A program made the position numbers and the translations under genes. A model generated the notes under the pieces. It had not been told where the DNA came from, ran no database searches, and saw only the letters and a list, made by a program, of their open reading frames with translations. Source: a virus. Taken from it: a DNA stretch of 64,000 nucleotides. The stretch's first letter is position 1. Each line of letters opens with the position of its first letter. Location: IMG/VR virus record IMGVR_UViG_3300035158_000183, positions 96,001 to 160,000 of that record; one strand, written 5' to 3'. Positions 11,729 to 55,522 of the stretch are shown here, piece after piece.

Positions 11729-11734
11729 TTCTTG

Positions 11735-35311: not shown

Positions 35312-36706
35312 TTATCGACCGATAAGGTTGACTATGACCATTCGCTCTGCGCCGCCCGCATATGTGAGTTGATCACTTCGCCCACCGGTTGCAGAACCAG
35401 GTGTACGCATATTTGCTGCAGTCTGGCCTGCGTATGCTGTTTTTACCTTCTCCAGGTAGTCTCGTGGATACTCATTGACACCAATGATCTGACCTACGAT
35501 ACCATTCTGGTGATTCTGAATTGCCTGCTCAAGCTGTGCGGAGATGTCTGCATCTGCGCCCGTACCGTAGTTTGGGTCAGCACTGTAGACAGCAAACGAA
35601 GAGTTATAACCTTCTGCAGTACCGATATCCAGTGAGGCCTTGACCAGGTTACTGGACTCGTCGTAGGTGAGGAAGTCACCGAACGAGAGATTTCCTGTGG
35701 CACACATGTAAGTGTTGCCTGCCGACGCTACAGCATCCTCGTAGTTGTAATACGTGATAGTTGCGCCAGTTGTCCATGGGGATGGGATAGCGTTGCCGCC
35801 AGCCTCATACAGGAACAGGAGACCCAGCTCTGTGTCCAGGAAGTAGTCTCCAGCAGCTGAGATAGCTGTCACGGAGCCAACTTTCTTGGTCAGACCCGAT
35901 ACGGATGGAGTGAGTGGTGTATCCATCGTGATGGCTGCCAGCGGGAACTTGGCGAACAGGTAGCAAACTACGTTGTCGCCTGCAGATACGTCGTTGGAGT
36001 ACTTCACGATTTCAGTGATCTGCGTTGAGCTGAACCATCCACCGGCACGAGGTGTCGTACCATCCAGCTGGTTCTGAAGCAGCGCTGCCGCTCCACCCGT
36101 GTTGTCATTAGCCATTGTTTCTGTAGCTTCCTCTGCTGGTACCACTGGAACAGTGATGCAGTAGTCACAGGTTACGGCTGTAAGAGCCTGTGGGCGGAAG
36201 TTGTGCTGGTAAAGCTCGCCTGGGTTGAAATGATCTGGCCCAGCTGCTTTCCAGTAGTTATAGGACGACACGCCGATAGGCTTCGAAATGAAGTCCATGG
36301 CTCTCTCGCCTTCACGGATCAGGCCGCGTTCTTTGAGAGCGTCAGAGACCTGCTCTTCAGTGTAGCTAACAGCGCCTGCCACTGCTACACCTGTGGTGAG
36401 GTCGATGACGTTCTCTGCGGCGTCTGTAGCCGTATAGGTGAGAATAGTCGTTCCACTTGCTTTGTTCCAGGCCTTGCGCAGACCTGCTGGGACGAGGTGT
36501 CCTCTTCGATCTTCCGCCACTACCTTACCTGCGGAGATGACAATGTAGTACTCATATTCATAGTCGTACCGCTGTACAGGCAGCCAGGGAGCAGCGAAGC
36601 TTTCAAAGTGAGGACGCTCAGAGTGGGAGTACTCCACGTTGGGAGTAACACGGCCCATGCGATCCCAGAATTTGTGATTGGGATTATATCCTCTGTCGAT
36701 TGCCAT
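35312..36706 (-). CDS. Capsid decoration/structural protein
   Basis: 464 aa between the protease and MCP; strong SD GGAGG. Confidence 0.6.
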   Translation of the reverse strand: MAIDRGYNPNHKFWDRMGRVTPNVEYSHSERPHFESFAAPWLPVQRYDYEYEYYIVISAGKVVAEDRRGHLVPAGLRKAWNKASGTTILTYTATDAAENVIDLTTGVAVAGAVSYTEEQVSDALKERGLIREGERAMDFISKPIGVSSYNYWKAAGPDHFNPGELYQHNFRPQALTAVTCDYCITVPVVPAEEATETMANDNTGGAAALLQNQLDGTTPRAGGWFSSTQITEIVKYSNDVSAGDNVVCYLFAKFPLAAITMDTPLTPSVSGLTKKVGSVTAISAAGDYFLDTELGLLFLYEAGGNAIPSPWTTGATITYYNYEDAVASAGNTYMCATGNLSFGDFLTYDESSNLVKASLDIGTAEGYNSSFAVYSADPNYGTGADADISAQLEQAIQNHQNGIVGQIIGVNEYPRDYLEKVKTAYAGQTAANMRTPGSATGGRSDQLTYAGGAERMVIVNLIGR

Positions 36707-36728: not shown

Positions 36729-38894
36729 CTACTCAGCGGCACTATCTGATTCCGCTGAAAGGCTTTCAAAAGTCAATTCGTCGGTAAACATATCCAATGC
36801 CTTCATTCTATCATAAATCTTCTGTGCATCGGAAATTTGCCCATCGGCGATCAACTCTTTGATATTGTTGATAGCTTCCACGGCTGGAGCAGAGAGACCC
36901 TCTGGCAGCTGTGTATTGTTCTTGTCTGTGTTGACTGTCGGGTTATCCACAGAGCCGTCTGGCTCACGAGACATCCCATCATTCAGTTTATTTACAATGA
37001 CTTGCAGATCAAAGCCATCTGTGATGGCAGCTTCCTGCTTGTCGAGGTCTGCATCCTTGAGGGCCTCCTGAGCTTTCTCGATATCCTCGAATTTGCCATT
37101 CAGGACGCCTACTAAGGCCAAATTATCGGCTCTGGCTTTGTAGAGAGACGCGCCAAGCTCCACATAGGAGTCTACCTGTGCACGGTAGTCCTCGTATGCT
37201 CTCTGCAGCTCTCCACGGAGAACCTGGAGAGTATCCTGCAGGCTTTCAAGCTCCTGCTTGGCCTCTGTGGCTGCTGCCTCAGCTGTTTCAGCCTTCTCTT
37301 GGTGTACAGCACAGTCGCTGCAGTCACGCTGGACCTTCAGGTCGCGGCTGATGAGTTCTAGCTCAGCTGAGTGGAATAGAGTGCGGAGATCCTCATTGTT
37401 GAGGTCTTTCAGCTGGTCCTCTGCACATGGTGAAGTGTTGCTGTCGGCTGGTGAAGTATCAGGCGCACTATCTGCAGAATCGTTGTTCTTGGACCCTCCA
37501 CAGCCCAGGGCCTTCGCCTTACGTGCCACACATGCAAGAATCCTAGACTTATCGCCAGGACCCTTATAGCGGCCGATAAGTCGTCTGGCTGCTGTTACAT
37601 GTGCACAATCCGGGACTGGGAAGGAACGATCCGGGCCACAGAATGTTGAGCCGGCTAGACCCTTACGCTGCTTGGCAGTAAGTCTGGCGTCAGCTGCGTC
37701 AAACTCTTCCTGCGTAATAAGCCCTTCATCTAACATAGCCTTAAGCTCAACCTGCATATTGTCTGCTACTTCATCAGCATTTACTTTCTGATCTGCTGTT
37801 TCCAGGTCTTCCAGAGCATACTGAATCGCTGTTTCCTCATCCAGCTCAGCCTCTTCCTGGAATGGGAAGAACTCGGCGTCGCCCTTGAGAGCTGCGATCT
37901 TCTGCGCAAAGTCAGCCAAGACCTTCTCCTCTGCTTCCTTGCGGAGCTTCTTGAGGGTCTCAAAGACCTTCTTCTCAGCATCAGAAAGAACGATTTCGTC
38001 TTTAGCTGATTTTGCCATATCGTCCTCCTTGTTGTGGTAATCCTTAAACTCGAAGACAGTATCCGTAAGAATATCAAATACTTCCTCTTGTTTATTAAGT
38101 ACAGTTACTACCTTATTATTGTCAGCGTTAGCCTCATCCATAATCTGGACAGCCACTAGAGTGTCGCCCTCCAGAGCTACGAAGCTAGTCTCTAGGTATT
38201 GGTGTACGCCAGGGATGGCCAGGGCGGGGAACTTATGACCATCCTCTGCATCATCCTCGTACATTTCCCCCATATCGTGCTCGCAGAAGCCATCGGCGGC
38301 CCAGTTTTGGCCACAGATCAGGCAGTGTGCGGCGCCTGGGGAGCGGAAATGTGTGGATACGGCGTCAAAGCGGCCATCTCTGACCTGCTCAATGGTTTCC
38401 TTGTCATAAATGTCAGCATACAGCTCGATGTAACCAAGTCCTCGCCACTCTTCCTTCTCCGTGATACCAGCACGCATAAGGTTTCTGGCAGCCTTCAACT
38501 GGTCCTTCATGGGAGCACTACTGCTCATAAGGGACTGGATGTCAGGGTTATCCTGTAGCTCTTCAGGTATAGTCGGGACGAACCTGGCGCTACGAACTAC
38601 ACCTACTGGATCCGATTCTAGATCGTGGTGCTTAAGGATCTTGGTGGGCTTTTCGCCTACCCTGAAGGTGCCTACTCCTTCAGCCATGCGCGATGGGATA
38701 TAGAAACGCCTATTCCGATTTAATACCCCAGCATGGCTAGCCTCCATGCGGATACGCAGAGCCTTAGATAGAGGGGCCGCACTGAGAAAATCCGTCCATT
38801 CATCGACCTGTTGCTCTGTAGGCTTGGTCAGCCTAAAGTAGTCAGTGAACGTAAGATTGATTGTCATACTGTTACACTCCTTAGCCACCGACAC
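36729..38894 (-). CDS. Prohead protease-scaffold fusion
   Basis: ASHAG..NRNRRFY, KHHD...PVG, DGRFDAVS, CLICG...CEH zinc ribbon; acidic coiled-coil C-terminus; start may be 38867. Confidence 0.75.
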   Translation of the reverse strand: MSVAKECNSMTINLTFTDYFRLTKPTEQQVDEWTDFLSAAPLSKALRIRMEASHAGVLNRNRRFYIPSRMAEGVGTFRVGEKPTKILKHHDLESDPVGVVRSARFVPTIPEELQDNPDIQSLMSSSAPMKDQLKAARNLMRAGITEKEEWRGLGYIELYADIYDKETIEQVRDGRFDAVSTHFRSPGAAHCLICGQNWAADGFCEHDMGEMYEDDAEDGHKFPALAIPGVHQYLETSFVALEGDTLVAVQIMDEANADNNKVVTVLNKQEEVFDILTDTVFEFKDYHNKEDDMAKSAKDEIVLSDAEKKVFETLKKLRKEAEEKVLADFAQKIAALKGDAEFFPFQEEAELDEETAIQYALEDLETADQKVNADEVADNMQVELKAMLDEGLITQEEFDAADARLTAKQRKGLAGSTFCGPDRSFPVPDCAHVTAARRLIGRYKGPGDKSRILACVARKAKALGCGGSKNNDSADSAPDTSPADSNTSPCAEDQLKDLNNEDLRTLFHSAELELISRDLKVQRDCSDCAVHQEKAETAEAAATEAKQELESLQDTLQVLRGELQRAYEDYRAQVDSYVELGASLYKARADNLALVGVLNGKFEDIEKAQEALKDADLDKQEAAITDGFDLQVIVNKLNDGMSREPDGSVDNPTVNTDKNNTQLPEGLSAPAVEAINNIKELIADGQISDAQKIYDRMKALDMFTDELTFESLSAESDSAAE

Positions 38895-41800
38895 CCAATT
38901 CGACCGTGCAGGTACAATGGGGGTGTAAAGGTGGCAGTTCTTCGTAGATTATAGCATCTGAGTTTTTGTAATTCAAAGGATGTTTATCACAGATTTCGCA
39001 AGGTTCACTTCCGTGACGGTGAGAAACCAGCTCTTCGAAGTCCAAAACCCGGTATCCACTGGCCTTGCCATAGTTGTAGGCCCTCATAATCTCACTGTTG
39101 TCTATCATGGCTGTTCTGTGGCGCAGGGCCTGTAGCATCAGGCCGGCGAATATGGCATCCTCAGCCTTCAGGCCTGGAGATTTCATAGTATACCGATCTA
39201 AGCTCTGAATGACCTCTTTCCTGAGTTTCATCATATATCTGGTGATGTGGTCGTTGATCTTCTCGTCAGCTCTCCCGGCATTTACTTGCCATATTTCGAC
39301 ATTTATGTCTCGTATACCCTGTCTATAGGCTTGGCGGGCCAGTAAGCTGAGGCGTTCTGCTGCCTTGCCGAAGGCTGCGTCTACCATAACCTGGAGTTCC
39401 TTGGTGCGGGCACCACGGTTCCGGATCTGGATATCGATATCATTTCTGAGGATATCGTAAGCTGTCTGAAGAGGCGGCTGCTGGCTGAATATGTAATCTA
39501 GTGTAGGAACGGCATTTCGCAGGCCGAAGTTGTCCTTGTTGACCTTGGCACTGGCTCTGGTGCCATGCTGGTTAGCAGGCTTGTTCTTATTAGTAACAGA
39601 GTTGCCGCCAGCAGACTTGGTTTTGTTTTGTGCCGTTCTGGAGACTGCTTCGGACTGGGATGTTGCAGTTCCTGGCTCGTCGAGGGACTGGAGTATAACC
39701 TTGTCTCTCTCGATCAGCCCATATTGAGTCATAGCCCAATCTCCATCACCCTTCACGAACATACGACCCTTGCTATTGGAGGTCGGCCAACCCTCACCCT
39801 CAAATGGCTCGTAGCCTAGCTCGATACGCATCTCTGGATGGGTGATGGCGTTCTTCAGGAAGATATCCACAAAGTGATTCTCTTTAGCCTGGCGGGCCTC
39901 GAAGTCAATCTCCTTGAACTTGAGGTATACCTTGTTCTCTTCGTCGAAGAGCGAGCCATCCGAGAAGGTACTCTCCAACATGAGTTCGCGTATTATGAAT
40001 GACTCGAACTGTGAGGCAAATTCTTTCTGATCAGCCTTGGTGTCGTCGATGAGGTTGCGTGACATGGTCTGGGCAGTAGAGTTCCCCTGAATGCTGATCT
40101 TTCCATTTCTTCTAACAACTAATACATGATTCGGGACCTCAAAAGCCCATACCTTGTCTCTGTAAAAAACCTTTTTGATTTGATGATCTCTTACTTCGAC
40201 CACTGTCTTTGGATGGATATTAATCCTGCCAACGCCCTTATGGGCTGGTCCTAATGAAGACCGAAGACCCAACCTTGATGTTAGTTCTTGTATACCATCT
40301 AACAGCTCTTTACTACTTGAGCTATATGAAAAACCCTTACGACCTGGCCTAGAATCATAAGATCCATCTCCTGAAACCAAAGCCACAAGAAGTAACCAAA
40401 GTTGTTTTGCTGGTAGGTTTAGAAATTCTCTTGGAATCTTTTTGTTATCGCTATAAGTACCAACATTCTCTGCCAAATATGTCCAAAGCGATTTACAATT
40501 TATCCAGAACCTAGAGCAAGAATCAGAATCGTTTATATACTCATTAAACCTAAACGGCAATCTCTCAAGTACTGTTCTAATCTTGATTACTTTTTCAGGA
40601 TTAGTCTTATTGCTTTGAGAGATAGAGATAGCCCATTTATTATCTTGTTTGGCTAAAGTTCCCTCGGATATAAAATACCCTAAAAACTCAAGCCAATCAT
40701 CCATGTCTATATTATTAAATGGACCAAGGTTGTCATGATTGGTTATATTAGGGCTATAATCTACTTGAGGAAGATCAAATGTAGACTGTTCTGTCCCTTC
40801 TACTTCTGATGGAGAAGCTAATAAACAAAACTTCTTTACGTCAATATCTTGAACTTCTCTTAACTCCCAAGTAATTTTATCTTTCCAGCCAATTCTCCCA
40901 AAATATAATTTGTGATTTGGCGTCACGACAAGATCAACATGACGATTACTAATCTTATAAAGTTCCCCCTCATAATCATAAGTAAGCAAACCATCAACTG
41001 GCTTCTGAAATTCTAATTGTTGGGTTTCAGGATTAATAGTACCAACCTTGTCACCATCCCTATAGTCCCAATAATTTTTCCAACCAGAATCTGTAAGAAT
41101 TTGGGTCTGGTTATCAAAACACCGGTTGGCTGTACCACCCTCACCCATATCCACCGAGCTATTGCCAAGACCAGTAAATATCCTCTGCTTGAAGTGAGCT
41201 ATTACCTTCTCAACTGCTACGGGGCCGGCCTTGGTAGCCAGTGGAATGATTTCGTGCCGCTCCGGTGTAACCCAGCAACCATCTGTAGGCATTTGGGCCA
41301 CCTTCAACTGTATCTCTTGGACTTCATCTTTACCATCGGGGTTCACAGCAGCAGGGTTATTCTCTGTACCAACCTTGTAGTGGAATAATGGGAAAAGATG
41401 CTGGTAGACCAGAAGCTCTATATTCTCTTCAATACGGCGCAGAGCGCGGATATCATCCTTAACTGAGGCCAGAACAGGGGTACCCACAGAGTAGCCCTCC
41501 CGCTTGTCATAGTAGAAGTGTACCACGTCATCAGGGCTGAACTCCTTAGCGGTCTTGCCGTAGACCTCCTGCTGGTACTTCTTAAGCCTACCGTATTCGT
41601 CTCTCTTGAATCTGACAGTCTCCGGAGCCATTAAGAAGTAACCCGCTACAGGCTGTAGCTTCTTGCCGTCAGGTGTAGTTCTGACACGACCGCCAGATGC
41701 CGGCTCCTTGCGCACCTTCACCCAGAAGGCATTCGAGGTACGTATTAATGCCCAGATAGTCTGGCTGATCAGGACCGGGAACGGAGTTCCGGTAGCTGTT

Positions 41801-42138
41801 TCCATTTGCTGGAAGCGTCTCTTGACATAACGCACCCTCTCGGGCTTGGTTCCAACAAACTCGTAGCCCTCCTTCAGGAACAGGTTCTTCTTATTGCGGA
41901 ATGCTCTGCGAACATAGGATTCGGTATCTATGATACGCCCACATTCTGCCAGATCCCATTCTGGAGCCTCCCAGCGCAATGATGGGGCGCGAGACCTGCC
42001 AATATTATTTGTGTATACCTTGGTGGGTGCTGGGATGACCCTGGGTATAATAGCTCGCTTAGTCGTTCCCTTTGGCCCCTTACCAAAGCCATCATTCTTG
42101 GGCACTATAGTTTTAGCTGTGGTAGATGCCTTAGCCAT
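38881..42138 (-). CDS. Portal protein with intein and C-terminal head-morphogenesis (SPP1 gp7/MuF-like) motif
   Basis: 1085 aa; SNAFWVK, DDVVHFYY..GYSVGTP..SVKDDIRALRRIEE; C-terminal CEIC...PPLHPHCTC. Confidence 0.85.
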   Translation of the reverse strand: MAKASTTAKTIVPKNDGFGKGPKGTTKRAIIPRVIPAPTKVYTNNIGRSRAPSLRWEAPEWDLAECGRIIDTESYVRRAFRNKKNLFLKEGYEFVGTKPERVRYVKRRFQQMETATGTPFPVLISQTIWALIRTSNAFWVKVRKEPASGGRVRTTPDGKKLQPVAGYFLMAPETVRFKRDEYGRLKKYQQEVYGKTAKEFSPDDVVHFYYDKREGYSVGTPVLASVKDDIRALRRIEENIELLVYQHLFPLFHYKVGTENNPAAVNPDGKDEVQEIQLKVAQMPTDGCWVTPERHEIIPLATKAGPVAVEKVIAHFKQRIFTGLGNSSVDMGEGGTANRCFDNQTQILTDSGWKNYWDYRDGDKVGTINPETQQLEFQKPVDGLLTYDYEGELYKISNRHVDLVVTPNHKLYFGRIGWKDKITWELREVQDIDVKKFCLLASPSEVEGTEQSTFDLPQVDYSPNITNHDNLGPFNNIDMDDWLEFLGYFISEGTLAKQDNKWAISISQSNKTNPEKVIKIRTVLERLPFRFNEYINDSDSCSRFWINCKSLWTYLAENVGTYSDNKKIPREFLNLPAKQLWLLLVALVSGDGSYDSRPGRKGFSYSSSSKELLDGIQELTSRLGLRSSLGPAHKGVGRINIHPKTVVEVRDHQIKKVFYRDKVWAFEVPNHVLVVRRNGKISIQGNSTAQTMSRNLIDDTKADQKEFASQFESFIIRELMLESTFSDGSLFDEENKVYLKFKEIDFEARQAKENHFVDIFLKNAITHPEMRIELGYEPFEGEGWPTSNSKGRMFVKGDGDWAMTQYGLIERDKVILQSLDEPGTATSQSEAVSRTAQNKTKSAGGNSVTNKNKPANQHGTRASAKVNKDNFGLRNAVPTLDYIFSQQPPLQTAYDILRNDIDIQIRNRGARTKELQVMVDAAFGKAAERLSLLARQAYRQGIRDINVEIWQVNAGRADEKINDHITRYMMKLRKEVIQSLDRYTMKSPGLKAEDAIFAGLMLQALRHRTAMIDNSEIMRAYNYGKASGYRVLDFEELVSHRHGSEPCEICDKHPLNYKNSDAIIYEELPPLHPHCTCTVELGVGG
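40081..41121 (-). mobile_element. Portal intein (347 aa) with LAGLIDADG endonuclease, ending GN
   Basis: TANR|CFDNQTQILT...VTPNH...FLGYFISEG...LVSGDGS...VWAFEVPNHVLVVRRNGKISIQGN|S; AT-rich. Confidence 0.92.
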
Positions 42139-45469: not shown

Positions 45470-47422
45470 CTAGATATTGGTACGCGAAGGTCGTTGTTTA
45501 TGTACATTAGCGCGGCGACGCTTTCTTTGCAACCATTCAGCTTTACGTTGTGCTTCCATATCGCTTTCCCAGCCAACCCGATTGGTCTTGGCCACATCAG
45601 CAGCACTACTAATTCTACCAGGCATCATGTATGATTGCCTACTGTTAGCTGGGATTTCTTCCATACGGCGATCTTCTGGACGATGGATCTCTGGTCTAGC
45701 CTGTTGCTGGTCAGCTATTCGGTTCTCCCGGTCCTGTAGAGACTCTGGCCTCTGAACAGTACGTGGATCTGGAACCGCTATTACTGTAGTGATAAACTTA
45801 GAGGCATGTAGGTCATCGAACTCCAGGTGGAATGCCACCAGAGCTAGGTTGAGTGCATCTAGCCGGTGATCCAGAACCTTAGGTTCACGGAGGCCAAAAA
45901 CCTGTACCTTAGTGGGCGTAACACGCTCTACAATATAGTTTCGTAGCTGCTTCTCCAAGACATGGTCATGAGAGGAAATAATAATTCTCTCCTGCTCAAA
46001 AGCCCTCACGGAAGCACTGACCATGAACGGTTTGGCTGGCTTCTTGATCTTCTCATGGGTGATAGGGTCACGCACCTGCAGAGATGCCCCGGAGTCATAT
46101 TTCTTCAGTATATCCAGTAACTTAGCAGTCTGTAAGTCCCCGCCCTTCCTGCGCTCTTTGTAAGCAGTCTGTCTCAATAGCTCATAGTTAGTACTCCCGC
46201 CTCCGGCATCAATATACACAAACGACGGTCGCCACTTCCTATTCATTTCCAGAAGCTTTTGCACACCAGTGAGCTGTGTGAACTCAGTCTTAGGCACCAG
46301 CACTGCATCTACTATCTGGAATTTGCCAGTGAAAGTATTATGCCCTACGACTACTATCTCCGTACCATGCTGCTCGTTCCAGTCAGTGCCAATACAGTAC
46401 CTCCATGTAGATGACCTCTTGTGTTCGCCGTACTGGTAGTCCGTAAGAGCCGTATCGATATACTCAGGTTTATAGACGCCCGCTTCCGAAGAACCCCACT
46501 CTGCCAAGTACTCATGGGTCCAGTCCTCCTCAGTGAAAGAGGAGCGTTCCATCTCCACATTCTTCCAGTGGGGCAGCACCTTGTAGTTATGATGGTACTC
46601 CTTATAGTGTGGGTTTCCAGTACAGAACTTATAGTATGGTGTCTGAAAGCCAGATGGAGTTGAGAATCCTACCAGTGCAGTATCAGGAGATGTCTGCAAC
46701 AGCGGGATGACAGCGCCAGTAATAGCCTTCTCGTCAATATAGTCCATCTCCTCCAGGTACAATCTGTCAGCATCCTGTCCTCGGATAGAGACACCCTCAG
46801 ATTTGCCCTTGGTGCCGGCAGCAAAACCACGGAGTCTTGCACCATTGGTAAGCTTGATCTCATAGTATGGCGCAGATACATCACGCACTACCATATTAGC
46901 TAACTCTGGATTGCTATGGATAAACGCCCGGACTCTGGTGATAATTTCTTCAGTATGGGATTTTTGTGGACCCGCTACCACTATCTTGATATTGGGTTCG
47001 GTAAATAGGTAGTAACATATCTCAATGCAGATCAGGTCGGTTTTGCCAGTACGTCGAGCAGTCCGGAGGACTTTACGCCTGGAGGTACAGCGCAAAATGC
47101 GTCCCTGGTACCATCTGGCTATCCATGGATCGTCTGTCGGAAGCTTAAGGTACCGCGCAGCCCACTTCACAATATCAGCTACTGCTTCCAGCTCCGCCCA
47201 TGCCTCATCCGTAAAGGCAGTTCTCATATTTGGGTCTAGTTGGTTCCTGGGTATCCCTGTACAGGGAACTAGAAACTTACCACGAGCAGCCTTGCCATGC
47301 TCATCGACAAACTTCTCATATTTCTTAAGCTGTTTACGGACACAGTCGTGGCATTGATCTTCGACCTCATCCAGGACGAAGGGTAGCTTAAACTTCCGCA
47401 GATCCGTGCATGCATCTTCCAT
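45470..47422 (-). CDS. terL: Terminase large subunit
   Basis: WYQ, Walker A RRTGKT, IRGQDAD, Walker B LYLEEMD, motif III FSTP, RNase H-like GTDWN...YIDAGG...DHRLDAL. Confidence 0.92.
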   Translation of the reverse strand: MEDACTDLRKFKLPFVLDEVEDQCHDCVRKQLKKYEKFVDEHGKAARGKFLVPCTGIPRNQLDPNMRTAFTDEAWAELEAVADIVKWAARYLKLPTDDPWIARWYQGRILRCTSRRKVLRTARRTGKTDLICIEICYYLFTEPNIKIVVAGPQKSHTEEIITRVRAFIHSNPELANMVVRDVSAPYYEIKLTNGARLRGFAAGTKGKSEGVSIRGQDADRLYLEEMDYIDEKAITGAVIPLLQTSPDTALVGFSTPSGFQTPYYKFCTGNPHYKEYHHNYKVLPHWKNVEMERSSFTEEDWTHEYLAEWGSSEAGVYKPEYIDTALTDYQYGEHKRSSTWRYCIGTDWNEQHGTEIVVVGHNTFTGKFQIVDAVLVPKTEFTQLTGVQKLLEMNRKWRPSFVYIDAGGGSTNYELLRQTAYKERRKGGDLQTAKLLDILKKYDSGASLQVRDPITHEKIKKPAKPFMVSASVRAFEQERIIISSHDHVLEKQLRNYIVERVTPTKVQVFGLREPKVLDHRLDALNLALVAFHLEFDDLHASKFITTVIAVPDPRTVQRPESLQDRENRIADQQQARPEIHRPEDRRMEEIPANSRQSYMMPGRISSAADVAKTNRVGWESDMEAQRKAEWLQRKRRRANVHKQRPSRTNI

Positions 47423-47426
47423 AATA

Positions 47427-48245
47427 TTACCTATGTACGAACATAGCTTCCCGGCCCAGGAGGGACCGGGCAGACATGGTGCCGCGATTCATCATGGACA
47501 GAGATTGCTGTCTCATGGTGTGGGCCCGTTGGGTGTTGAAGGCTGGGCTTTGTACGCCCCAGTTGAGGCGACGCTTGCTCTGTTCACGCTCTACTAGCCT
47601 GTCGGGAATCCTGGTTAGGGCTTCTGTCATACTACCACCGGCTATCGCTCCCGCCATACCACCAGCCAGGTATCCTACGCCTGCACCTATGGCTGTGCCC
47701 ACAATTGGTATAGCACTACCTATGGCTGCACCAATACCCATACCAGCTTTGCTGCCTACTTCCCAGCCTATAAAGTCTGCAATACCTATAGTGGCACCTC
47801 GAGCGGCCTCAACACCTTCCTGGCCAGCACCCGCCTCCATAGCGCCTAGGGTGGCAAATATAGCAGAGGTTACAAAAGCTCCTCCGAGAGCATACTTGAT
47901 AGCACCGGCTCCGGCAAAACCTCCTCCGCCCATCTTCCGAGCTTCTTTCAAGGCCTTGGCAATGCCAGTGTCTCCCTTGTGCATCCTCTGAAGCTCTGTA
48001 AGGCGCCTGATATATTTCGGGCTGCCTGCAGCATGTTTGTGCCGCCATGGGTTTATCAACATTTCCTTACGGTTAGGAGCAAATATTGTAGCCGCCATTC
48101 CGCCCCTGGCATAACTCTTGGCGAATTGTGCCCGACCCCATTGGTGAGCACGATATCTTGCACGCGTTCCCAGGTCAGCCCCGGGAGGCGGTCGATCTGG
48201 TTGTCCGGTAAACCAGTTGAGATACGGATTGGAAAAATCTGCCAT
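47427..48245 (-). CDS. Gly/Ala-rich protein, probably virion-internal or membrane-inserting
   Basis: 272 aa; glycine-zipper GAAIGSAIPIVGTAIGAGVG; C-terminal TMRQQSL...RSLLGREA. Confidence 0.65.
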   Translation of the reverse strand: MADFSNPYLNWFTGQPDRPPPGADLGTRARYRAHQWGRAQFAKSYARGGMAATIFAPNRKEMLINPWRHKHAAGSPKYIRRLTELQRMHKGDTGIAKALKEARKMGGGGFAGAGAIKYALGGAFVTSAIFATLGAMEAGAGQEGVEAARGATIGIADFIGWEVGSKAGMGIGAAIGSAIPIVGTAIGAGVGYLAGGMAGAIAGGSMTEALTRIPDRLVEREQSKRRLNWGVQSPAFNTQRAHTMRQQSLSMMNRGTMSARSLLGREAMFVHR

Positions 48246-48273
48246 ACTATACTAGACCTGGATGGAGTGGTTC

Positions 48274-48765
48274 TTAATAGCTACGATTGGATCCGAGTAT
48301 GGAGTTTCCGATATAGGCGCCAGATCCCATACCCAGAGCTGCGAAACTTCCTGCACCCCATTTGTTAATACTCATAAAATTACGACCAATCAAGGCATTA
48401 GCTCCACGCGCACCGGCCTGTAGGTGTCCGCCACCCACAATAGCAGCAGATCCTAGCCCCCCTAATTTACCTTGATTACTCATTATTCTTCCAGCGCCCC
48501 AGTCCATCATACGTCCGCCCGCCCCAGCGAGTCGGTTAGCCCCTGTGCCCAGAGCACCTGCGATACTTTTGATTCCATGTCCGCGACCCAGTGCGCCAAT
48601 TCCTCTTGCAGCAGGGCCCAAAAGCATACCAGCTGCTGCGCCGCCCAGCGCTCCGCCTGCTATACCACCATAATCTCCCCAGTCGCCAACTGCCCCCATG
48701 GCTCCACCTGCAGCGGCACCAGCGAAACCTCTACCTATTAAGCCTCTTGCGAAAAATCCTGGCAT
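48274..48765 (-). CDS. Small Gly-rich basic protein
   Basis: 163 aa; ends IGNSILGSNRSY. Confidence 0.7.
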   Translation of the reverse strand: MPGFFARGLIGRGFAGAAAGGAMGAVGDWGDYGGIAGGALGGAAAGMLLGPAARGIGALGRGHGIKSIAGALGTGANRLAGAGGRMMDWGAGRIMSNQGKLGGLGSAAIVGGGHLQAGARGANALIGRNFMSINKWGAGSFAALGMGSGAYIGNSILGSNRSY

Positions 48766-48781
48766 GTTGTTGATCTCCTAA

Positions 48782-49204
48782 TTAGTAGGGTCGGTTGGAC
48801 TCTAATATTGTTGAGCCGATTAGTCCTGAAGCGCCTATTCCCCCAGCCGCAGTAAGGGCTGTTGTCAAGCCACGACGAGTAAAGCCTCTTCCTCCTACCT
48901 CTCGCATCCCCTCTATTAGAGGCCCAGTCCTACCAAACCAGCCCCCTGCCGCAGCATTACTACGCATCTTACTGCCCAGAAATGCAAATCCACGACGGCC
49001 CCATCTACTTCCCATTAGTGCACCGGTTGCGGCGCCAAAGCCTGTACCTGCTAGTTGGCTTTGATCACCACTCATTAAAGCACCACCTATTATGGAGTAT
49101 CCCAGACCGCCCACGCCTCCTCTAACTGCGCCAGCGCCGACACCTCGGCCCATACCCAAGCTACTCGGAACACCAGCAAACCAAGAAGGTTTAAAAAATG
49201 CCAT
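48782..49204 (-). CDS. Small Gly-rich basic protein (paralog of 48274..48765)
   Basis: 140 aa; ends IGSTILESNRPY; SD AAGGAGG. Confidence 0.7.
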   Translation of the reverse strand: MAFFKPSWFAGVPSSLGMGRGVGAGAVRGGVGGLGYSIIGGALMSGDQSQLAGTGFGAATGALMGSRWGRRGFAFLGSKMRSNAAAGGWFGRTGPLIEGMREVGGRGFTRRGLTTALTAAGGIGASGLIGSTILESNRPY

Positions 49205-49235: not shown

Positions 49236-49264
49236 ATTATAGTATGATTTTATACTCCTGTCGA
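49236..49264 (-). promoter_or_regulatory. Sigma70-like promoter for the Gly-rich genes and terL
   Basis: Minus strand TCGACA (49264-49259), 17 nt, TATAAT (49241-49236), upstream of SD and ATG at 49204. Confidence 0.6.
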
Positions 49265-52200
49265 GGCAAACTTCTCATGTCTATGCCCGGCTCCACGTGA
49301 AGCCCTCAGACCGATGCCCACAGCAGCCTGGCTGTCGTTATAGAATCTCTTATTGCGCTTCAGTATGTAGTCATCGTAGCGCTGGCGCTTCTGAGCCCGC
49401 CAATTCACTAAATATTCTGAAGCCTTACGCTTGCGTCTTGCCTGATATTCATTCCAGGCCTTATAAGCTTTCTTCGTTAGCTCCCGACGGCTTATTTGGT
49501 GGCTCTCTAGATTTTGATCCCATAGTGGGCTTTCCGTGCTAGGATTATAACCAGAGCCAAACTCAGAAAAGCTTTTGACCATTTGGCCGCCTATCGAGTG
49601 CTCTGAACTGGGATTTATTCCATGTAGTTTAACGGTATCCTTCTTGCGGCCAATTAACATATTCACAGCTTCTTCTACATCAGGCTTCAGGTCCTCTATC
49701 CAATTTACTGGGGCTTCAGCTACAATGCCAGGCCGTGGGACACCCTCTACAAGACGTATTTTTAGCAGCTGCTCCTCTTCAAAGCGCCACTGTTCCATCA
49801 TCTTGAAGAAGTCTTCATGCTCCCCACCACCAGCTAGTAATTTAGCTCTGTCTTCAGCTTTCTTCATTTCACGCTCTGCCTGACGTAGCTTAAACGCGTT
49901 ATCCTGCCGCACCCTGACCATATTAGCAAAATGCTGCTCGCCCTTGAATCCCGCTAATTCGCCCCCTAGTGGCGCTGATAGAGGTTGTAAAACCGGCCTT
50001 TGAGCAGCATGCGCTGCTCGGCGTTCTCGGACAACGCGAACAAACTCCTCCTCGCTGGAGAATTTACCTATCAGTGGCCTAGAGGGTCTCCTGAATATCT
50101 TGCCCAAGAATCTAGGCATCCAGCCAGAACCAAACTCAGAATGGGCTCTAATAGATTGAGCGCCGAGATCTTCTGAGCCGGGGTGGATGCCATCTATAGG
50201 CTGCAAGGCTTTATTCGGCCCACCACCTATAGTGTCAAGTACAACATGTACATCTTGTTTGAGCCCAGCAGATTTGGCTCTGGCCAGATGCTCCTCCATC
50301 TTTCCCCAGTGGTATGCCATGGACGCTTCCATTGTAGCCACAGGCGACTGGACGCCAGCTGCTCTAGAAGCCATTCCGAAATCAATCCAAGATACATGTC
50401 CGCTTTCGGGACTGTAAAGGATGTTGGCCATATTGGGGTCGATATTCATCCACCCCTTGCCGACCACACCCGACATCTGCTTTCTCATCTCGGATTCGAT
50501 ATGCTTCTTAGGAACGGATATTCCCATCTTCCTCAGTTCGTAGATAGGAGTACCGGGCATGTACTCCATAAATAAGCGATCATCTTTCAGGCCATACGCC
50601 GTTGGGGTGATCTCTCCAGAAATTTCTCGCAGAACATCGTATTCCTTCCTGATGGAACCTACAGACCTCTGCTTCAGAAACTTCAGTGCTTTAGGAAATT
50701 CTCTACTTTCCTTCAGGACATACTTGAAGGCGTGACCTTCAACCTCAGACTCAAACAGATGGGCCATTCCAGATTGCCCATGGCCAAGTTTTTTGACCTC
50801 CGTTCCCTTCTGAAGGGCAGAAGCAAATCTTCTACTACTGAGGAGTTTCTTATAGGCCTCTTCTGCCGGAAGGTCCTTGAATATTTTTCTGGCTATCTGT
50901 CTTAAAGGATCCCAGCCGCTACCGAACTCAGAGTGAGACCGCACAGACTGAGCCCCCATGCCTTCTGAGCCAGGATGAAGACCATTTATAGGCTTATAGG
51001 CTCTGTTGCGCCTTGGGAAGCGTCGAGCATAAACCTCATTGTAGTATGCTAGCTCTTCTTGATAGGTTCGCCAGAGGCCTGGTAGATCTTTAACTTCCTC
51101 TTCAAGTTGAGCCCGCTCCCGGGCAGACTCTCTTTCCATAGTCTCTATAGAAGCACCATACTGTATATCTTCTTCGGCCAGACGACCAGCTTCTAGATCA
51201 GCCATCACCTTGGCCTTCACGCGCTCAAGCTTCTCTACATCAGCTTGGAACTTAGCCTCATCGAATGGGACTTCTATCATCGCCCTCTCGGAAGGGTCTT
51301 CACGGCTGATGTATTCTAGATAGCCCTTCTCTTGGCCGAGAGCATGCATGTAAAACCGCAACTGAGCCTCATGCTTCTTAAAGGCTCCACGCTCTCTGAT
51401 ATGCTGTAGCCGTCTAGCACTGACTGTCTTGATGTCGCCTGGTATGCCGCCTGGATAGAGAACATCAATAAACCCTGCCATGCCCAACTCTGGGTCATGC
51501 ACAAATCTTTCGACATCCTCTACCTCACCACGCGCATACTGAGCTGCCTCAAAGAATCTGTGGCCCGCCACACCAGCCATGGAGGCTGCTGTCAGCATCT
51601 CAGTTTCTCGCTGCTCCTCGGTAAGATACTTGTAGATTTCCCTCTCGCTTGCCCCTAGCTTACTTGGAGCGAAACGTGTGTACTTAGGTACCTCTTTACG
51701 CTGGTGCCACTCAGGTTGTAGCCATGGGTTGGGCCCCCTATAGCCAGAACCGAAGTCTGAGTGTGCTCGCATGGCCTGGGCGCCCGTACCTTCAGACCCG
51801 GGGTGCATACCCTGAATCCTATTAAATGTGAAACGTCCAGGGTGTCGGATATCTTGCCACTCGTCCATCGCCTGCTGGAGGGTTTCTTTAGAGATTTCCT
51901 CGGTAGCAATCTTATGGTAGTCAGCTACCTGGTATAGGCCGACAGCAGTACGCCGGAGGTGCGGTGGGACCCAGCGTGTATACTTTTCAACTACAGACTC
52001 CAGTTCCGGATTCTGTGGAAGTGTGTATGTTCCTATATTGTATACCTGTAGGGCGCCTCGGTGAGCAAACATCTCGTTGGCTACCCATTCCACATAAGGG
52101 TTATCCGGGTCTTCTCGGACAGTCTGTTGGGCTATTCGGATATTGCGGTTGTAGACTGGTGCCTTGGCGGCCAGGTGAGCTATATCTTCCTTAGAGGTCA

Positions 52201-54166
52201 TCCTGCCGCTCAGCAGCTGCCTCTGGGCTTCTCGGATGAAAGTAGCCTTATCTTCTGGGTCGATATCCAAATCCCAGAGAGCATGAAGACCTTCATGCAG
52301 TGTCGTCTCTCGAACCTTGATTGGAGAGATGTACTTCATCAATTCTCTGGTCCCATAAACTCCTGCCTTGCTGGTTATATGGGAACCTATAATAACTTCA
52401 CTGGGATCGAGGATACCGCCGATGTTTAGCTCGTCCTTGGCAGGATAATAGGAACCAAAGGCACCTATAGATTCTCTCTCTGTAAAGGCGGCATTAACCT
52501 TAGCAAGATTCTTATAGTCTCGCCAGAAAATTTCACGTGATAGCACCTTGAAGGCATCAGGCCCACTAAGCATCAGCATAGACTTGTCCATCTCTTGAGC
52601 CCGCACTGCCTTGCGTACCAACTTGCGGTACTCTTTAGCAGTTAGCAGCCTATCCTCCAGCATCTCCTTCTCAATAGTTGGCTGTGTAATACCTCTGTAG
52701 CCAGACCCGAAGTCCGTGAGTTGCCTACGGGTACGCTGTGCCATACCTCCGTCCCGCATACCCTCTATGAGCTTATAGTCCTCATCCCTGGAGGAGATGG
52801 CCAGCCCTACTAGCCCTAGGCCAGCCACAACACCGGCACCCTTGAGCGCTCCACCCCAGGTAGGTTTGAATCTCCTGATATCTACAAACGATCTATTAGA
52901 TTTAATCTCGGGATAGAACTTACCCAGATGCTCATGAAATGGTCTGGCGTACTCTGCCTCGCTAGCCAGCATCTTAGAGGCATAATCCTGAAACCGCATA
53001 CCCTCGTCAATTAGCTGCAACTTCTGACCCGTACCACGATGTACGGCTGCCTGGAAGACATCGAAGTTCTGCAGGAAAGTCTGTCTGGCGGCTTTGTGGT
53101 CTTTAAGTTTATCCCAGATAAACTCTGTCATTTGCACATCAAAACCAGCACCATGGGCACCTATCGCTGCTCCCTTGAAGCCTAGTGTCTCGGCCACAGC
53201 AGCCAGCTGCCAGCCTCTAGGTTTCAGCCTGAGGTCTTCGAACATACCAGCTTGCCAGCCCACTACCTTCCTGCCTATGGTATTGGACAGAAAAGCTTGG
53301 GTATGCTCAGCGACATCCAGAAGGTGAGTCTGCTTGAGGGCTCTATGTAGCTCATCCTGCAGCCCATGTCGAGAGGCCTGCTCCATGAGTATTGGGATAT
53401 CAAACTGCTTTATGTTGTACCCCATTACAGTGCGACCCGGGGTGAGCTGTTTGATAAACTTCTTGACTACTTGCTTCTCGGTAAGAGTGGTCTGTCCGGA
53501 GACTGCCAGGGCCTGCCGATACTTCGGGATGATGGTTTCCTCAATATAAGGATCATATCTCTTGGTAGGGTCCAGGTGCCCAAAGAACTCGGAGACCTGG
53601 CCACGCTGATGCATGCCAACAGTAAGAATACGAGAATCTCTACCCAGGAGACCTGTGGTTTCGAGGTCGAATATAAGTGGGTCCACCACACCAGGTCGCT
53701 GGAGGGCCTTCATCACTGAGACATCTGCCAGCCCTTCAAATAGTGGAGCACGGCCAGTGGCCTGACCGAAGCTGACAACGCCTCCGAAGAGACTACGGTT
53801 AACACTCTTGGCCTGGAGGCCTCTCCCACTGCCCCTGGTGTACTCTACAGGGTTAATGGGGACTCCCCACTGGTCAGGACCATAGTAGCTAGGTAGGTGG
53901 CCCAGCTCTAGTCTGCGCTTATGGTAGAACTGCCACCAGCGCTGCCCACTAGTCTCCTTGACAGTCTCTTCCAGATAGTTCCGGACGAAGAATAGCTCTT
54001 CCTGGGTCCTGGCGGCCCGGATGAGCTGCTCAGGAGAATACAGATGCATTAGGCTCTTATCTATCTCGCGGAACCAGCGATTCCTGTACTGCTCCCAGAT
54101 AGGTCGGCCAGGGGCCTCTAGAATATCATCTAGTAATTCCGATATGTTAGGATCTTGTGTGGGCAC
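49250..54166 (-). CDS. Multi-enzyme polyprotein: DnaQ exonuclease, zincin metallopeptidase, PD-(D/E)XK nuclease, protein kinase and two unknown modules, separated by repeated linkers
   Basis: DLETTG/YNIKQFD/HGAGFD; HEGLH...NEMFA; GFIDV..GDIKT..QLRFY; GHGQSG..VLKE..E..DPNMAN..DFG; five FGSG[YW] linkers. Confidence 0.85.
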   Translation of the reverse strand: MPTQDPNISELLDDILEAPGRPIWEQYRNRWFREIDKSLMHLYSPEQLIRAARTQEELFFVRNYLEETVKETSGQRWWQFYHKRRLELGHLPSYYGPDQWGVPINPVEYTRGSGRGLQAKSVNRSLFGGVVSFGQATGRAPLFEGLADVSVMKALQRPGVVDPLIFDLETTGLLGRDSRILTVGMHQRGQVSEFFGHLDPTKRYDPYIEETIIPKYRQALAVSGQTTLTEKQVVKKFIKQLTPGRTVMGYNIKQFDIPILMEQASRHGLQDELHRALKQTHLLDVAEHTQAFLSNTIGRKVVGWQAGMFEDLRLKPRGWQLAAVAETLGFKGAAIGAHGAGFDVQMTEFIWDKLKDHKAARQTFLQNFDVFQAAVHRGTGQKLQLIDEGMRFQDYASKMLASEAEYARPFHEHLGKFYPEIKSNRSFVDIRRFKPTWGGALKGAGVVAGLGLVGLAISSRDEDYKLIEGMRDGGMAQRTRRQLTDFGSGYRGITQPTIEKEMLEDRLLTAKEYRKLVRKAVRAQEMDKSMLMLSGPDAFKVLSREIFWRDYKNLAKVNAAFTERESIGAFGSYYPAKDELNIGGILDPSEVIIGSHITSKAGVYGTRELMKYISPIKVRETTLHEGLHALWDLDIDPEDKATFIREAQRQLLSGRMTSKEDIAHLAAKAPVYNRNIRIAQQTVREDPDNPYVEWVANEMFAHRGALQVYNIGTYTLPQNPELESVVEKYTRWVPPHLRRTAVGLYQVADYHKIATEEISKETLQQAMDEWQDIRHPGRFTFNRIQGMHPGSEGTGAQAMRAHSDFGSGYRGPNPWLQPEWHQRKEVPKYTRFAPSKLGASEREIYKYLTEEQRETEMLTAASMAGVAGHRFFEAAQYARGEVEDVERFVHDPELGMAGFIDVLYPGGIPGDIKTVSARRLQHIRERGAFKKHEAQLRFYMHALGQEKGYLEYISREDPSERAMIEVPFDEAKFQADVEKLERVKAKVMADLEAGRLAEEDIQYGASIETMERESARERAQLEEEVKDLPGLWRTYQEELAYYNEVYARRFPRRNRAYKPINGLHPGSEGMGAQSVRSHSEFGSGWDPLRQIARKIFKDLPAEEAYKKLLSSRRFASALQKGTEVKKLGHGQSGMAHLFESEVEGHAFKYVLKESREFPKALKFLKQRSVGSIRKEYDVLREISGEITPTAYGLKDDRLFMEYMPGTPIYELRKMGISVPKKHIESEMRKQMSGVVGKGWMNIDPNMANILYSPESGHVSWIDFGMASRAAGVQSPVATMEASMAYHWGKMEEHLARAKSAGLKQDVHVVLDTIGGGPNKALQPIDGIHPGSEDLGAQSIRAHSEFGSGWMPRFLGKIFRRPSRPLIGKFSSEEEFVRVVRERRAAHAAQRPVLQPLSAPLGGELAGFKGEQHFANMVRVRQDNAFKLRQAEREMKKAEDRAKLLAGGGEHEDFFKMMEQWRFEEEQLLKIRLVEGVPRPGIVAEAPVNWIEDLKPDVEEAVNMLIGRKKDTVKLHGINPSSEHSIGGQMVKSFSEFGSGYNPSTESPLWDQNLESHQISRRELTKKAYKAWNEYQARRKRKASEYLVNWRAQKRQRYDDYILKRNKRFYNDSQAAVGIGLRASRGAGHRHEKFASTGV
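49547..49627 (-). repeat. Polyprotein linker repeat 5
   Basis: LHGINPSSEHSIGGQMVKSFSEFGSGY. Confidence 0.85.
50120..50197 (-). repeat. Polyprotein linker repeat 4
   Basis: IDGIHPGSEDLGAQSIRAHSEFGSGW. Confidence 0.92.
50912..50989 (-). repeat. Polyprotein linker repeat 3
   Basis: INGLHPGSEGMGAQSVRSHSEFGSGW. Confidence 0.92.
51740..51817 (-). repeat. Polyprotein linker repeat 2
   Basis: IQGMHPGSEGTGAQAMRAHSDFGSGY. Confidence 0.92.
52697..52768 (-). repeat. Polyprotein linker repeat 1 (more divergent)
   Basis: IEGMRDGGMAQRTRRQLTDFGSGY. Confidence 0.85.
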
Positions 54167-54176
54167 ACAGAGTCAC

Positions 54177-54971
54177 CTACTTGGCTTCCCAGTCGGCCTC
54201 TTCGATTGACTCGTCAGCTAGCTTTTCAGCGTCAGCCTTGATGTCTTCTATGGAAACGCCCTTCCTCTTGGCCATAGCACCTATAGCTTCCTTCAAGTAA
54301 GCGAAGTGCTGGCCAACATCGCCATCCTCACGGCGCTTAAGAGCAGCAGCTCTCTTGTATTTCTCTTTCCTGGTAGCCGCCAAGCTCTCTAGAATCTGCG
54401 CCCTAACCTTCTGGACCTTGTCCTTCACCTCTAGTATGGGGTGTGGGTTCAGGGTCTCGGAGGTAGCCTTGTCACCCTCAGTGACGTCCAGGCGGAGCAG
54501 ATTCCATGCCTCCTCATCCGTCGAGAGACCATTATTAGCTCTATAGTCAATTATATCGCATTCTACTAGCTTATTAACAAGAACCATCTCAGTCCGGCTC
54601 TCGACATCCACCTGCAGGTCCTCCACATAGCTCTGAAGCCAGGTGGAGATAAGATTTGCCTCCACAGGACAGGGGTCTGATATTGGATAATCTTGCCCAT
54701 CATGGAACGGGCATGACTTGTTGGGGCATTTCTTCCCACCACAGAGCATGGGTATAGCGGCCGAGGTACCGACCTTCATCCTCACGATATGATTACGGAA
54801 TTTGAGGGCCTGCTCCGGAGTCATGGTCTTCTCCAGCTTGGCCAGCTGTTGCCTGGGCAGCTCGAGAAAGTTAAAGAAGTCTGTCTTGGACACATTGCCC
54901 AGAGCATCTACCTGAGTGCCATCCAACTTCAGGAGAGCTGCCTTGGGAGTACCTGATCCACTGCCACCCAT
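54177..54971 (-). CDS. Cys-rich protein, possible terminase small subunit
   Basis: 264 aa; CGGKKCPNKSCP...CPVE then helical LNPHPILE...LESLAATR, reminiscent of TerS oligomerisation helices; upstream of terL. Confidence 0.4.
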   Translation of the reverse strand: MGGSGSGTPKAALLKLDGTQVDALGNVSKTDFFNFLELPRQQLAKLEKTMTPEQALKFRNHIVRMKVGTSAAIPMLCGGKKCPNKSCPFHDGQDYPISDPCPVEANLISTWLQSYVEDLQVDVESRTEMVLVNKLVECDIIDYRANNGLSTDEEAWNLLRLDVTEGDKATSETLNPHPILEVKDKVQKVRAQILESLAATRKEKYKRAAALKRREDGDVGQHFAYLKEAIGAMAKRKGVSIEDIKADAEKLADESIEEADWEAK

Positions 54972-55522
54972 TACTTAGCCACCCAATTTCCTTCTAGCTC
55001 GGTCTGATACTGGTCATCAGTATAGTAGGTCTTCGCCTCGTGAACTTTATCCAAACCATCTTCAAGATACAGGCTGCCTGCCTGGAACTTAACAGCAGGA
55101 TAGATATCCCACAGTTTCTTGGCCAGCGGAGGCTCTTCATGGTCATATATCTTGGGCGAGGAGAAGAGTATTTTCTGGGTATCACCCATAGCACTGAATA
55201 TCAGCCCAAGAGCATCTTCTCTAACAGATGCGAACTCCTCGACAAGAATACAATCGAACTCACGTGCTCTTATCGCCTCAGCAGTAGATGCGAAGAATAC
55301 ATTGTCGGTAGGGTCCATGCGTCCCTTGACCTCTTCCCAGATGGCTTTCACCGGTGCGAGTATCAGTAGGTGCTGGCCAGCAGCTGCTTTCTCGTTCGCA
55401 ATCTCGACCAGCAGATCAGTCTTGCCAATTCTCCTCGGCAGGACCGCCATGACATGCATATCTGTGTCTATTGCAGTCTTGAGGATATTATGACAGAGAG
55501 CAGTTAGATCATTATTAGCCAT
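54971..55522 (-). CDS. Stand-alone terminase-like ATPase domain (no nuclease)
   Basis: 183 aa; PRRIGKTDL, LILAP, IRAREFDCILVEEF, FSSP, YQTELEGNW parallel the TerL N-terminal motifs. Confidence 0.7.
   Translation of the reverse strand: MANNDLTALCHNILKTAIDTDMHVMAVLPRRIGKTDLLVEIANEKAAAGQHLLILAPVKAIWEEVKGRMDPTDNVFFASTAEAIRAREFDCILVEEFASVREDALGLIFSAMGDTQKILFSSPKIYDHEEPPLAKKLWDIYPAVKFQAGSLYLEDGLDKVHEAKTYYTDDQYQTELEGNWVAK

Follow-up and report, generated by a model that had tools for sequence, protein, structure and literature searches.

Polyvalent proteins are single polypeptides of phages or conjugative elements that carry 2 to 15 distinct effector-type domains, and they are predicted to be packaged and possibly processed (PMC5512222). 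In T4, capsid-targeting peptides, and in phiKZ and SPN3US, the propeptides of ejection proteins, stand at the N terminus, direct cargo into the prohead and are removed by the prohead protease, after which the cargo is ejected with the DNA (PMC5694885). Here, a gene from the IMG/VR virus record IMGVR_UViG_3300035158_000183 is compared with these systems. The record is 174,034 bp long with a CheckV completeness of 91%, and the window, the whole stretch of DNA that was analyzed, comprises 64 kb of it (positions 96,001 to 160,000); all coordinates are those of the window unless another locus is named, and (-) denotes the minus strand, which carries nearly all genes in this part of the phage. The gene (49250..54166, -) encodes a 1,638-aa multi-enzyme protein, hereafter called the train, in which five copies of a conserved peptide of about 38 residues, hereafter called the joint, separate the enzyme modules. 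The joint is a family-wide element that is conserved at the peptide level and delimits cassettes, the enzymes between the joints are intact, and the gene has a fixed place in the head and packaging module. Its sequence and position suggest that the gene most likely encodes a late effector train belonging to the head module.

Judged by its sequence, the train fits the published definition of a polyvalent protein (PMC5512222). As in that group, many unrelated effector-type enzymes are joined in one polypeptide with mosaic architectures, the gene is sited among late and virion genes, and the repertoire includes a minimal kinase, nucleases, and a putative zincin peptidase. However, the word "linker" has 0 occurrences in the paper on polyvalent proteins (PMC5512222), whereas a peptide of ~38 aa fences every cassette here. 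In addition, the best-conserved part of the train is the joint, the genomic slot is fixed, and the C-terminal tail is conserved. The T4 signals occur once per gene, are N-terminal, are 10 to 20 aa long (>100 aa in the giant phages), and have short cut motifs ending in Glu. In contrast, the joints are internal, ~38 aa long, present in 1 to 7 copies per chain, and of another motif, the exception to the internal position being one relative whose protein opens with a joint three residues past the Met. The T4 gp21-type (S77) protease is also absent, with no match to PF03420 at an E value of ≤1 in the 174-kb genome. This absence, together with the different location, length, and motif of the signal, places the train outside the T4 system. 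The candidate protease of this phage, which may cut the joints, is of the gp123/HK97-gpO type and not of the T4 type. The closest described head module is that of Bacillus phage 0305phi8-36, which shares a homologous TerL, the portal order, and gp112-like, gp115-like, and gp123-like protease/scaffold genes; unlike the phage studied here, 0305phi8-36, Acinetobacter phage ME3, and MTATph1 contain neither the joint nor the train. The repeated conserved joint, the logic of chassis plus cassettes, the conserved tail, the fixed slot, and the size of the uncultured clade are new.

The joint peptide and the constraint on it

The five joints lie at 52691..52804 (-; profile match of 66.8 bits), 51734..51847 (-; 59.3 bits), 50906..51019 (-; 69.3 bits), 50114..50227 (-; 61.1 bits), and 49541..49654 (-; 50.2 bits). 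Joint 1 belongs to the majority subtype, joints 2, 3, and 4 belong to the minority subtype, and joint 5 is the most divergent. The two subtypes are told apart by a short insertion, and the minority one accounts for about 62 of 516 copies. An earlier note, made from the letters of the window alone, had described five motif copies in this gene that fall between enzyme domains; the motif scan and the profile recovered all five, and the module matches lie between them. That note had also called copies 1 and 5 divergent, which holds for copy 5, whereas copy 1 represents the subtype to which most copies of the family belong. When the window was scanned in six frames and the full 174-kb record was searched with the profile, the motif appeared only in the train open reading frame (ORF), with five profile matches in the entire record (E values of 7e-20 to 6e-14). 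About 20 of the 38 positions are conserved at ≥75%. The Phe-Gly-Ser core is 97 to 99% invariant, and the conserved residues include a Ser (99%), a Thr/Ser (96%), an Asn (94%), an Arg (92%), an Asp-Asp pair (83 to 84%), and one position that alternates among His, Glu, and Asp.

The first homology search retrieved 17 proteins of 900 to 1,900 aa that have the motif in common and differ in cargo. A profile built from 13 joints and searched against 1.84 billion representative proteins matched 498 protein clusters at an E value of ≤1e-3, 330 of them at ≤1e-10. The top 150 matches all hold 2 to 7 copies, and all matches examined were large metagenomic phage proteins with 1 to 7 joints each. A word-indexed search of a larger protein collection with the joint gave 241 hits, and a search of IMG/VR with a three-joint alignment gave 3 loci. 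No model in Pfam, PHROG, or NCBIfam covered the joints at an E value of ≤1, the PDB gave no match, a protein atlas look-up of one joint gave no usable match, and searches with the motif strings found no paper carrying the motif in a relevant context. The joint is thus no described protein family or repeat, as the earlier note had suspected. Searches of ~50,700 phage records by tblastn with the whole train and both joint subtypes returned nothing real, so that no cultured phage with a joint was found. Among 185,579 prokaryotic species genomes (GTDB), one joint match was found, in a gene for a NuoD-like subunit of a respiratory complex on the chromosome of Geobacter sp. AOG1 (L068:10001-10078). 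Fourteen residues there nearly reproduce the initial third of the joint, but the remainder is absent, and the match was rejected as chance; by our own estimate, the 45 joint-pattern matches in GTDB are also about the number expected by chance. Because cultured phages lack the joint and the prokaryotic match is attributed to chance, the family seems to be confined to uncultured lytic phages with contigs of ~110 to 205 kb, whose sources include sediment, groundwater, and hypersaline sites. The profile is specific enough to mark these effector genes, as well as the phage clade as a whole, in metagenomic data.

No other element of the region, TerL included, is as conserved as the joint. The joint core has an identity of ~52% on average across all copies, compared with averages in the same loci of 39% for TerL, 32% for the upstream partner, 28% for the 272-aa neighbor, and 25% for the kinase cargo. 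This constraint is very strong and acts at the protein level, not at the DNA level. Within the train gene, the joint copies share ~64 to 73% DNA identity, with a longest common exact run of 12 nt, and the invariant core Ser is encoded by both TCT and AGC. Across 33 genes, identical joint residues had identical codons in 426 of 931 cases, against 350 of 931 expected from codon usage, and the longest exact run between joints of one gene had a median of 11 nt. Since codons differ between copies, the constraint acts on the peptide. Joints of one protein (54.5% identity) do not resemble each other more than joints of different phages do (51.9%), and of 597 joints, only 24 have their nearest relative within the same protein; gene conversion and genome-specific co-drift are accordingly absent. 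One of the 33 genes differs from the others in having a long identical run: at L007:790-927 and L007:2056-2193, two joints and their upstream flanks share 51 identical bases, which suggests that a cassette was recently duplicated within this gene.

Structure models were made by AlphaFold for two constructs, joint 3-kinase-joint 4 (22 sequences) and joint 1-zincin-joint 2 (9 sequences). In these AlphaFold 2 (AF2) models, all four joints have a predicted local distance difference test (pLDDT) score of <50 and form at most one short helix, whereas the cargo scores 85 to 97. Neither model places a joint against the cargo or inside the zincin cleft, and the folded kinase begins a few residues past the end of its joint. 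As modeled on their own, the joints are disorder-like and of low confidence. A peptide that has no stable modeled fold and yet surpasses the terminase in conservation calls for a mechanism.

Enzyme cargo and exchange of cassettes

The N-terminal domain of the train (53687..54166, -; aa 1 to 160) has no assigned function and no Pfam match, and it is kept in 20 of the 211 family members. It is followed by a DEDDh 3'-5' exonuclease module (52967..53686, -; aa 161 to 400), which matches phrog_192 (6.7e-13) and Pfam RNase_H_2 (PF13482; 27.3 bits against a cut-off of 22) and occurs in 102 of the 211 members, mostly as the first module. A hydrophobic helix read from the translation (52790..52846, -) directly precedes joint 1. 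Family-wide, a strongly hydrophobic 17-mer precedes 31% of first joints versus 10% of later joints.

The module between joints 1 and 2 (51818..52687, -; aa 494 to 783) is probably zincin-like, as judged from its HExxH motif and from fold comparison. All 10 homologous modules keep the motif unchanged, and the core of the AF2 model has a pLDDT of 70 to 97. The matches listed by VIA-align are mostly zincin peptidases, at Z scores of only 5 to 7.1, with M34-like, Pro-Pro endopeptidase, PprI, SprT, and neprilysin entries in the top rows. Pfam gave no match to this module, and Foldseek gave nothing at an E value of ≤1e-3. The next module (50993..51730, -) is a Cas4/RecB-like PD-(D/E)xK nuclease that matches phrog_1706 (6.4e-10) and is 40 to 62% identical to modules in the relatives P0003, P0006, P0007, and P0010. 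The core matches this PHROG, but the translated module contains zero cysteines; because Cas4 proper has a four-Cys Fe-S cluster, it was excluded, and the nuclease is RecB/Cas4-like and not Cas4.

The module between joints 3 and 4 (50201..50902, -) is a RIO-like minimal protein kinase, matching Pfam ABC1 (27.7 bits against a cut-off of 22.9) and, in Foldseek, RIO1/RIO2 (E value of 5e-9, probability of 1.0), with an AF2 pLDDT of >90. Across 22 cassettes, the Gly-loop and the Lys, Glu, Asp, Asn, and DFG Asp residues show little or no variation, and by fold and conserved residues the module is predicted to be a minimal protein kinase of the RIO/Bud32-like kind. The domain order and the intact kinase residues that the earlier note had read from the letters are therefore supported, for the exonuclease, the RecB/Cas4-like nuclease, and the kinase, by Pfam, PHROG, Foldseek, and the conservation among the 22 cassettes. 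The module after joint 4 (49622..50110, -; aa 1353 to 1515) has no assigned function, no Pfam match, and no homolog among the 211 family members. The cargo of relatives also includes SNase (staphylococcal-nuclease) domains; MuF, methylase-helicase, and ART modules were not detected in the train by the Pfam scan.

The 211 joint-bearing proteins have 160 distinct architectures, so that homologs do carry different cargo between conserved joints; the case that would have refuted the earlier note, a fixed set of domains without linker conservation, does not apply. These counts are based on named cargo seeds, as greedy de novo clustering drifted and several of its "families" matched nearly all proteins. 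The kinase was found in 137 proteins, the exonuclease in 102, SNase in 72, the Cas4-like nuclease in 29, and the zincin in 10. The usual first module is the exonuclease, and the usual last one is the kinase; the layout is therefore that of a chassis with a variable middle. The front of this semi-fixed chassis would consist of the N-terminal domain, the DEDDh exonuclease, and the hydrophobic helix, and its back would consist of the RIO-like kinase and the basic tail, with interchangeable cassettes in between. The median spacing of joints is 266 aa, and adjacent joints stand back to back in 30 of 340 cases.

Comparisons of relatives indicate what is gained and lost. P0008 and P0009 align with 67% identity as far as one joint, and the alignment resumes at the next: P0008 holds one additional unit of cargo plus joint, and its two flanking joints align to a single joint of P0009. 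Among 35 nonredundant indels of ≥120 aa between relatives, both ends fall in joints in 20, one end in 12, and neither in 3, although joints with 8 flanking residues on each side make up only 14% of the residues. BLAST segments tend to stop at conserved islands, a caveat for the placement of the ends; despite it, these alignments clearly identify the cassette as the unit of change, in line with the modularity proposed in the earlier note. The cassette is best read as a joint plus the enzyme downstream of it, because the kinase fold starts at the end of a joint, the sequence before joints is variable, and the cargo-specific extension right after a joint is conserved together with its cargo. The minimal member, of 457 codons, consists of an N-terminal piece, one joint, the kinase, and the tail. 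As every cassette has its own joint, in-frame gain, loss, and exchange at joints would give functional proteins, and the mosaic architectures would result from such exchange. In the 61 loci fetched, there were no stand-alone cargo genes within ~10 kb of the train and no joints split over two ORFs. In the relative P0058, an intein is present inside the enzyme train itself.

The train ends in a conserved basic tail of about 40 aa (49259..49381, -), recognized by its identity to the extreme C termini of homologs. It is 50 to 60% identical to those of 10 of the first 16 homologs and recurs, in a single copy, at the extreme C terminus of at least 43 of 157 family members. Because it is single-copy and terminal, the tail appears to be at least as good a candidate as the joints for a loading or anchoring signal. 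It may resemble the cargo-loading peptides of encapsulins. A visual likeness of the tail to C-terminal tags of neighboring proteins was not supported by profile comparison, with no significant match among 1,175 C termini of neighboring ORFs.

The genomic slot and the possible roles of the joint

Each of the 61 loci contains exactly one joint-bearing ORF. Among the loci with enough flanking sequence (42 upstream and 37 downstream), a 264-aa partner gene lies directly upstream of the train in 39 of 42, and the downstream side holds a 272-aa gene in 34 of 37 and TerL in 35 of 37. With the portal gene and the capsid gene at 34022-35290 farther downstream, the train falls within the packaging and head module, where the earlier note had placed it. 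In 0305phi8-36, the corresponding slot between gp112 and gp115 holds gp113 and gp114; these two and the neighboring gp116 are all annotated as virion proteins by mass spectrometry (GenBank accession number EF583821). The ME3 slot is occupied by a stand-alone DEDD exonuclease that lacks a joint and bears a hydrophobic helix at its C terminus; this protein looks like the front end of the train on its own, with weak pairwise support.

The phage also encodes a homolog of gp123 of 0305phi8-36, which is annotated as a protease of the HK97 gp4/P2 gpO type (GenBank accession number EF583821). This candidate maturation protease fused to a scaffold (36729..38894, -) adjoins the portal gene and matches gp123 by BLASTP over the N-terminal 220 aa (1e-11) and by iterated search (5e-56). 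Pfam Peptidase_S78 (PF04586) missed it even at an E value of ≤1. The S78, S77, trypsin-like, ClpP, and subtilase families gave no match in the phage genome, in searches that are insensitive, as the failure of PF04586 to find the gp123 homolog indicates. Protease surveys of this phage clade that are based on Pfam will yield false negatives.

We tentatively favor a model in which the train is loaded into heads, the gp123-like protease recognizes and probably cuts its joints, and ejection of the resulting pieces follows. The train would enter the prohead, where the joints would be recognized by a conserved component of the head; the gp123-like protease/scaffold, whose gene adjoins that of the portal, is the most plausible one. 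The train would be tethered there and then cut into enzymes of roughly 25 to 30 kDa, which would enter the next host with the DNA, and the nucleases and the kinase would act before phage genes are expressed. The catalytic residues kept in the kinase and the zincin are consistent with this model. The circumstantial basis for the joint as a signal consists of the synteny with the virion-protein genes of 0305phi8-36, the gp123-like gene, and the low-confidence models of the joints. Several findings weigh against the model. Ordinary protease sites are far shorter than a motif of 38 residues in which ~20 positions are conserved at ≥75%, and a Phe-Gly-Ser core that is 97 to 99% invariant is suggestive of chemistry or tight packing more than of a P1/P1' preference. 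The conserved residues are mostly polar, including the position that alternates among His, Glu, and Asp. The motif occurs in no other head protein of the window by the six-frame scan, so that a general prohead protease would need a second specificity. It would also have to be explained, for example by an inactive precursor or modified DNA, how nucleases can be packaged with the genome. Moreover, gp113, gp114, and gp116 have no detectable homology with the train, which makes gp113 and gp114 positional counterparts only, and the joint was found in no cultured phage. If the joint is nevertheless a loading or release signal, it would be a portable tag for placing chosen proteins into a phage head, and it would explain how an arsenal of premade injected enzymes diversified in a large clade of uncultured phages.

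Because the joint is long, invariant, limited to the train, and mostly polar, two other explanations of it stay alive. In one, which is unlikely but deserves consideration, the joints are uncleaved docking peptides that fold only on binding and tether the whole protein to a putative partner in the capsid interior, scaffold, portal, or terminase. The length of the motif together with its low-confidence models, a conservation that is uniform across phages without genome-specific drift, and the precedent of the N4 virion RNA polymerase, a giant protein packaged unprocessed (PMC5512222), are all compatible with docking. However, family members with a single joint make multivalency unnecessary, and an intact multi-domain chain of 180 kDa would be hard to pass through a contractile tail. 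In the other, the joint is an autonomous element without a dedicated enzyme, either self-cleaving through a nucleophilic Ser after Gly or acting as a metal-dependent folding switch. Most conserved residues are of polar or catalytic types, the alternating His/Glu/Asp position resembles a metal ligand, the joint is more conserved than TerL, and a dedicated protease would have this protein as its single substrate. Yet AF2 gives the joint no fold, 38 residues are very few for strain-driven autoproteolysis, four of the five window copies lack the Asp-Asp...Asn part and two of the five lack the His, and no precedent was found in the literature, all of which make this explanation improbable. That the joint is a new self-sufficient element in a broader sense, either an autoprocessing module of ~38 residues or a capsid cargo-loading peptide that works internally, is doubtful to a slightly lesser degree; if true, a DNA phage would possess a natural "plug-and-play" polyprotein system, in which arbitrary enzymes strung in one gene are released or loaded without cargo-specific machinery.

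The train may also not be packaged at all and may serve late in infection as a membrane-anchored cytoplasmic multi-enzyme during packaging or lysis, where it might, for example, clear host DNA or exclude superinfecting phages, with joints as spacers for assembly with a partner. The hydrophobic helix before joint 1, the location of the gene away from genes for internal proteins, with a small-terminase candidate on one side and TerL on the other, and the absence of a MuF-type head anchor by the Pfam scan suit such a role. We consider it fairly improbable, given that the slot encodes virion proteins in 0305phi8-36, that spacers do not need 52% identity across phages, and that nucleases and a kinase match the injected effectors of polyvalent proteins (PMC5512222). 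Processing by the embedded zincin, with its conserved HExxH and zincin-like fold, would follow the role that Iyer et al. proposed for metallopeptidase domains of polyvalent proteins (PMC5512222). However, only 10 of the 211 joint-bearing proteins have the module, so that it cannot be the general processing enzyme, and AF2 places neither flanking joint in its cleft; there is very little chance that it cuts the train at its own joints. Equally little credence is given to joints that serve mainly as DNA homology arms for cassette exchange, a function that the earlier note had suggested and that is largely refuted as the primary one. The clustering of indel breakpoints in joints, the slight excess of identical codons, and the one gene with the 51-nt identical pair agree with it, but the exact runs are short both within genes generally and in the train, the core Ser uses both codon types, and amino acid conservation far exceeds DNA conservation. 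The rarity of nearest relatives within the same gene likewise leaves no sign of concerted evolution.

Neighboring genes and minor observations

The train reading frame starts with a GTG at 54166 and stays open for 1,638 codons, down to 49250. The database protein, which the translation matches at 100%, has 1,599 aa and begins at residue 40 of the longer form. Because alignments with relatives begin at residue 5, the longer form that starts at the GTG is probably the right one.

The upstream partner (54177..54971, -; 264 aa) has four invariant Cys residues with a zinc-ribbon-like spacing and a C-terminal coiled coil. By iterated search it is homologous to gp112 of 0305phi8-36 and to ME3_9, and it has no match in Pfam or the PDB; we infer that it is a candidate for the small terminase. 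ME3_9 is annotated as an RNA methyltransferase, probably wrongly. A role of the partner as a protease was rejected, since it has the four invariant Cys residues and no conserved Ser/His/Asp set. An adjacent ORF of 183 aa (54971-55522, -) matches only the ATPase part of the large terminase (phrog_2; 1.6e-5), and it is not part of the conserved module, with homologs in only 3 of the fetched loci. The large terminase itself, TerL (45470..47422, -), matches phrog_2 at 9e-34. A 694-aa protein is encoded between TerL and the portal, and a conservation plot of it gave no informative pattern.

Between the train and TerL, three small glycine-rich proteins are encoded (47427..49204, -), of which the 272-aa one is homologous to gp115 of 0305phi8-36. 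In about 30 loci, the glycine-rich proteins end in conserved C-terminal tags, with several tag types across lineages, and one of these types resembles the end of the virion protein gp114 of 0305phi8-36. A homolog of ME3_21 was identified at 35312-36706 by iterated search.

Inteins were also found in packaging genes. The 1,085-aa portal gene (38881-42138, -) contains an intein with a LAGLIDADG homing endonuclease: phrog_9232 matches the ends of the protein, Pfam LAGLIDADG_3 matches residues 584 to 631, the intein blocks are marked by ribonucleotide-reductase and thymidylate-synthase PHROG matches, and the C-terminal ~170 aa match a head-morphogenesis PHROG. In two related loci, it is TerL and not the portal that holds an intein (L001:10641-13709, 1,022 aa; L002:18252-22055, 1,267 aa), with matches to Pfam Intein_splicing, LAGLIDADG_3, and Hint. 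Downstream of the sheath and tube genes, three giant ORFs of 2,156, 1,497, and 2,610 aa occupy positions 5258-24060 (-) of the window and presumably encode tape measure, baseplate, or fiber proteins.

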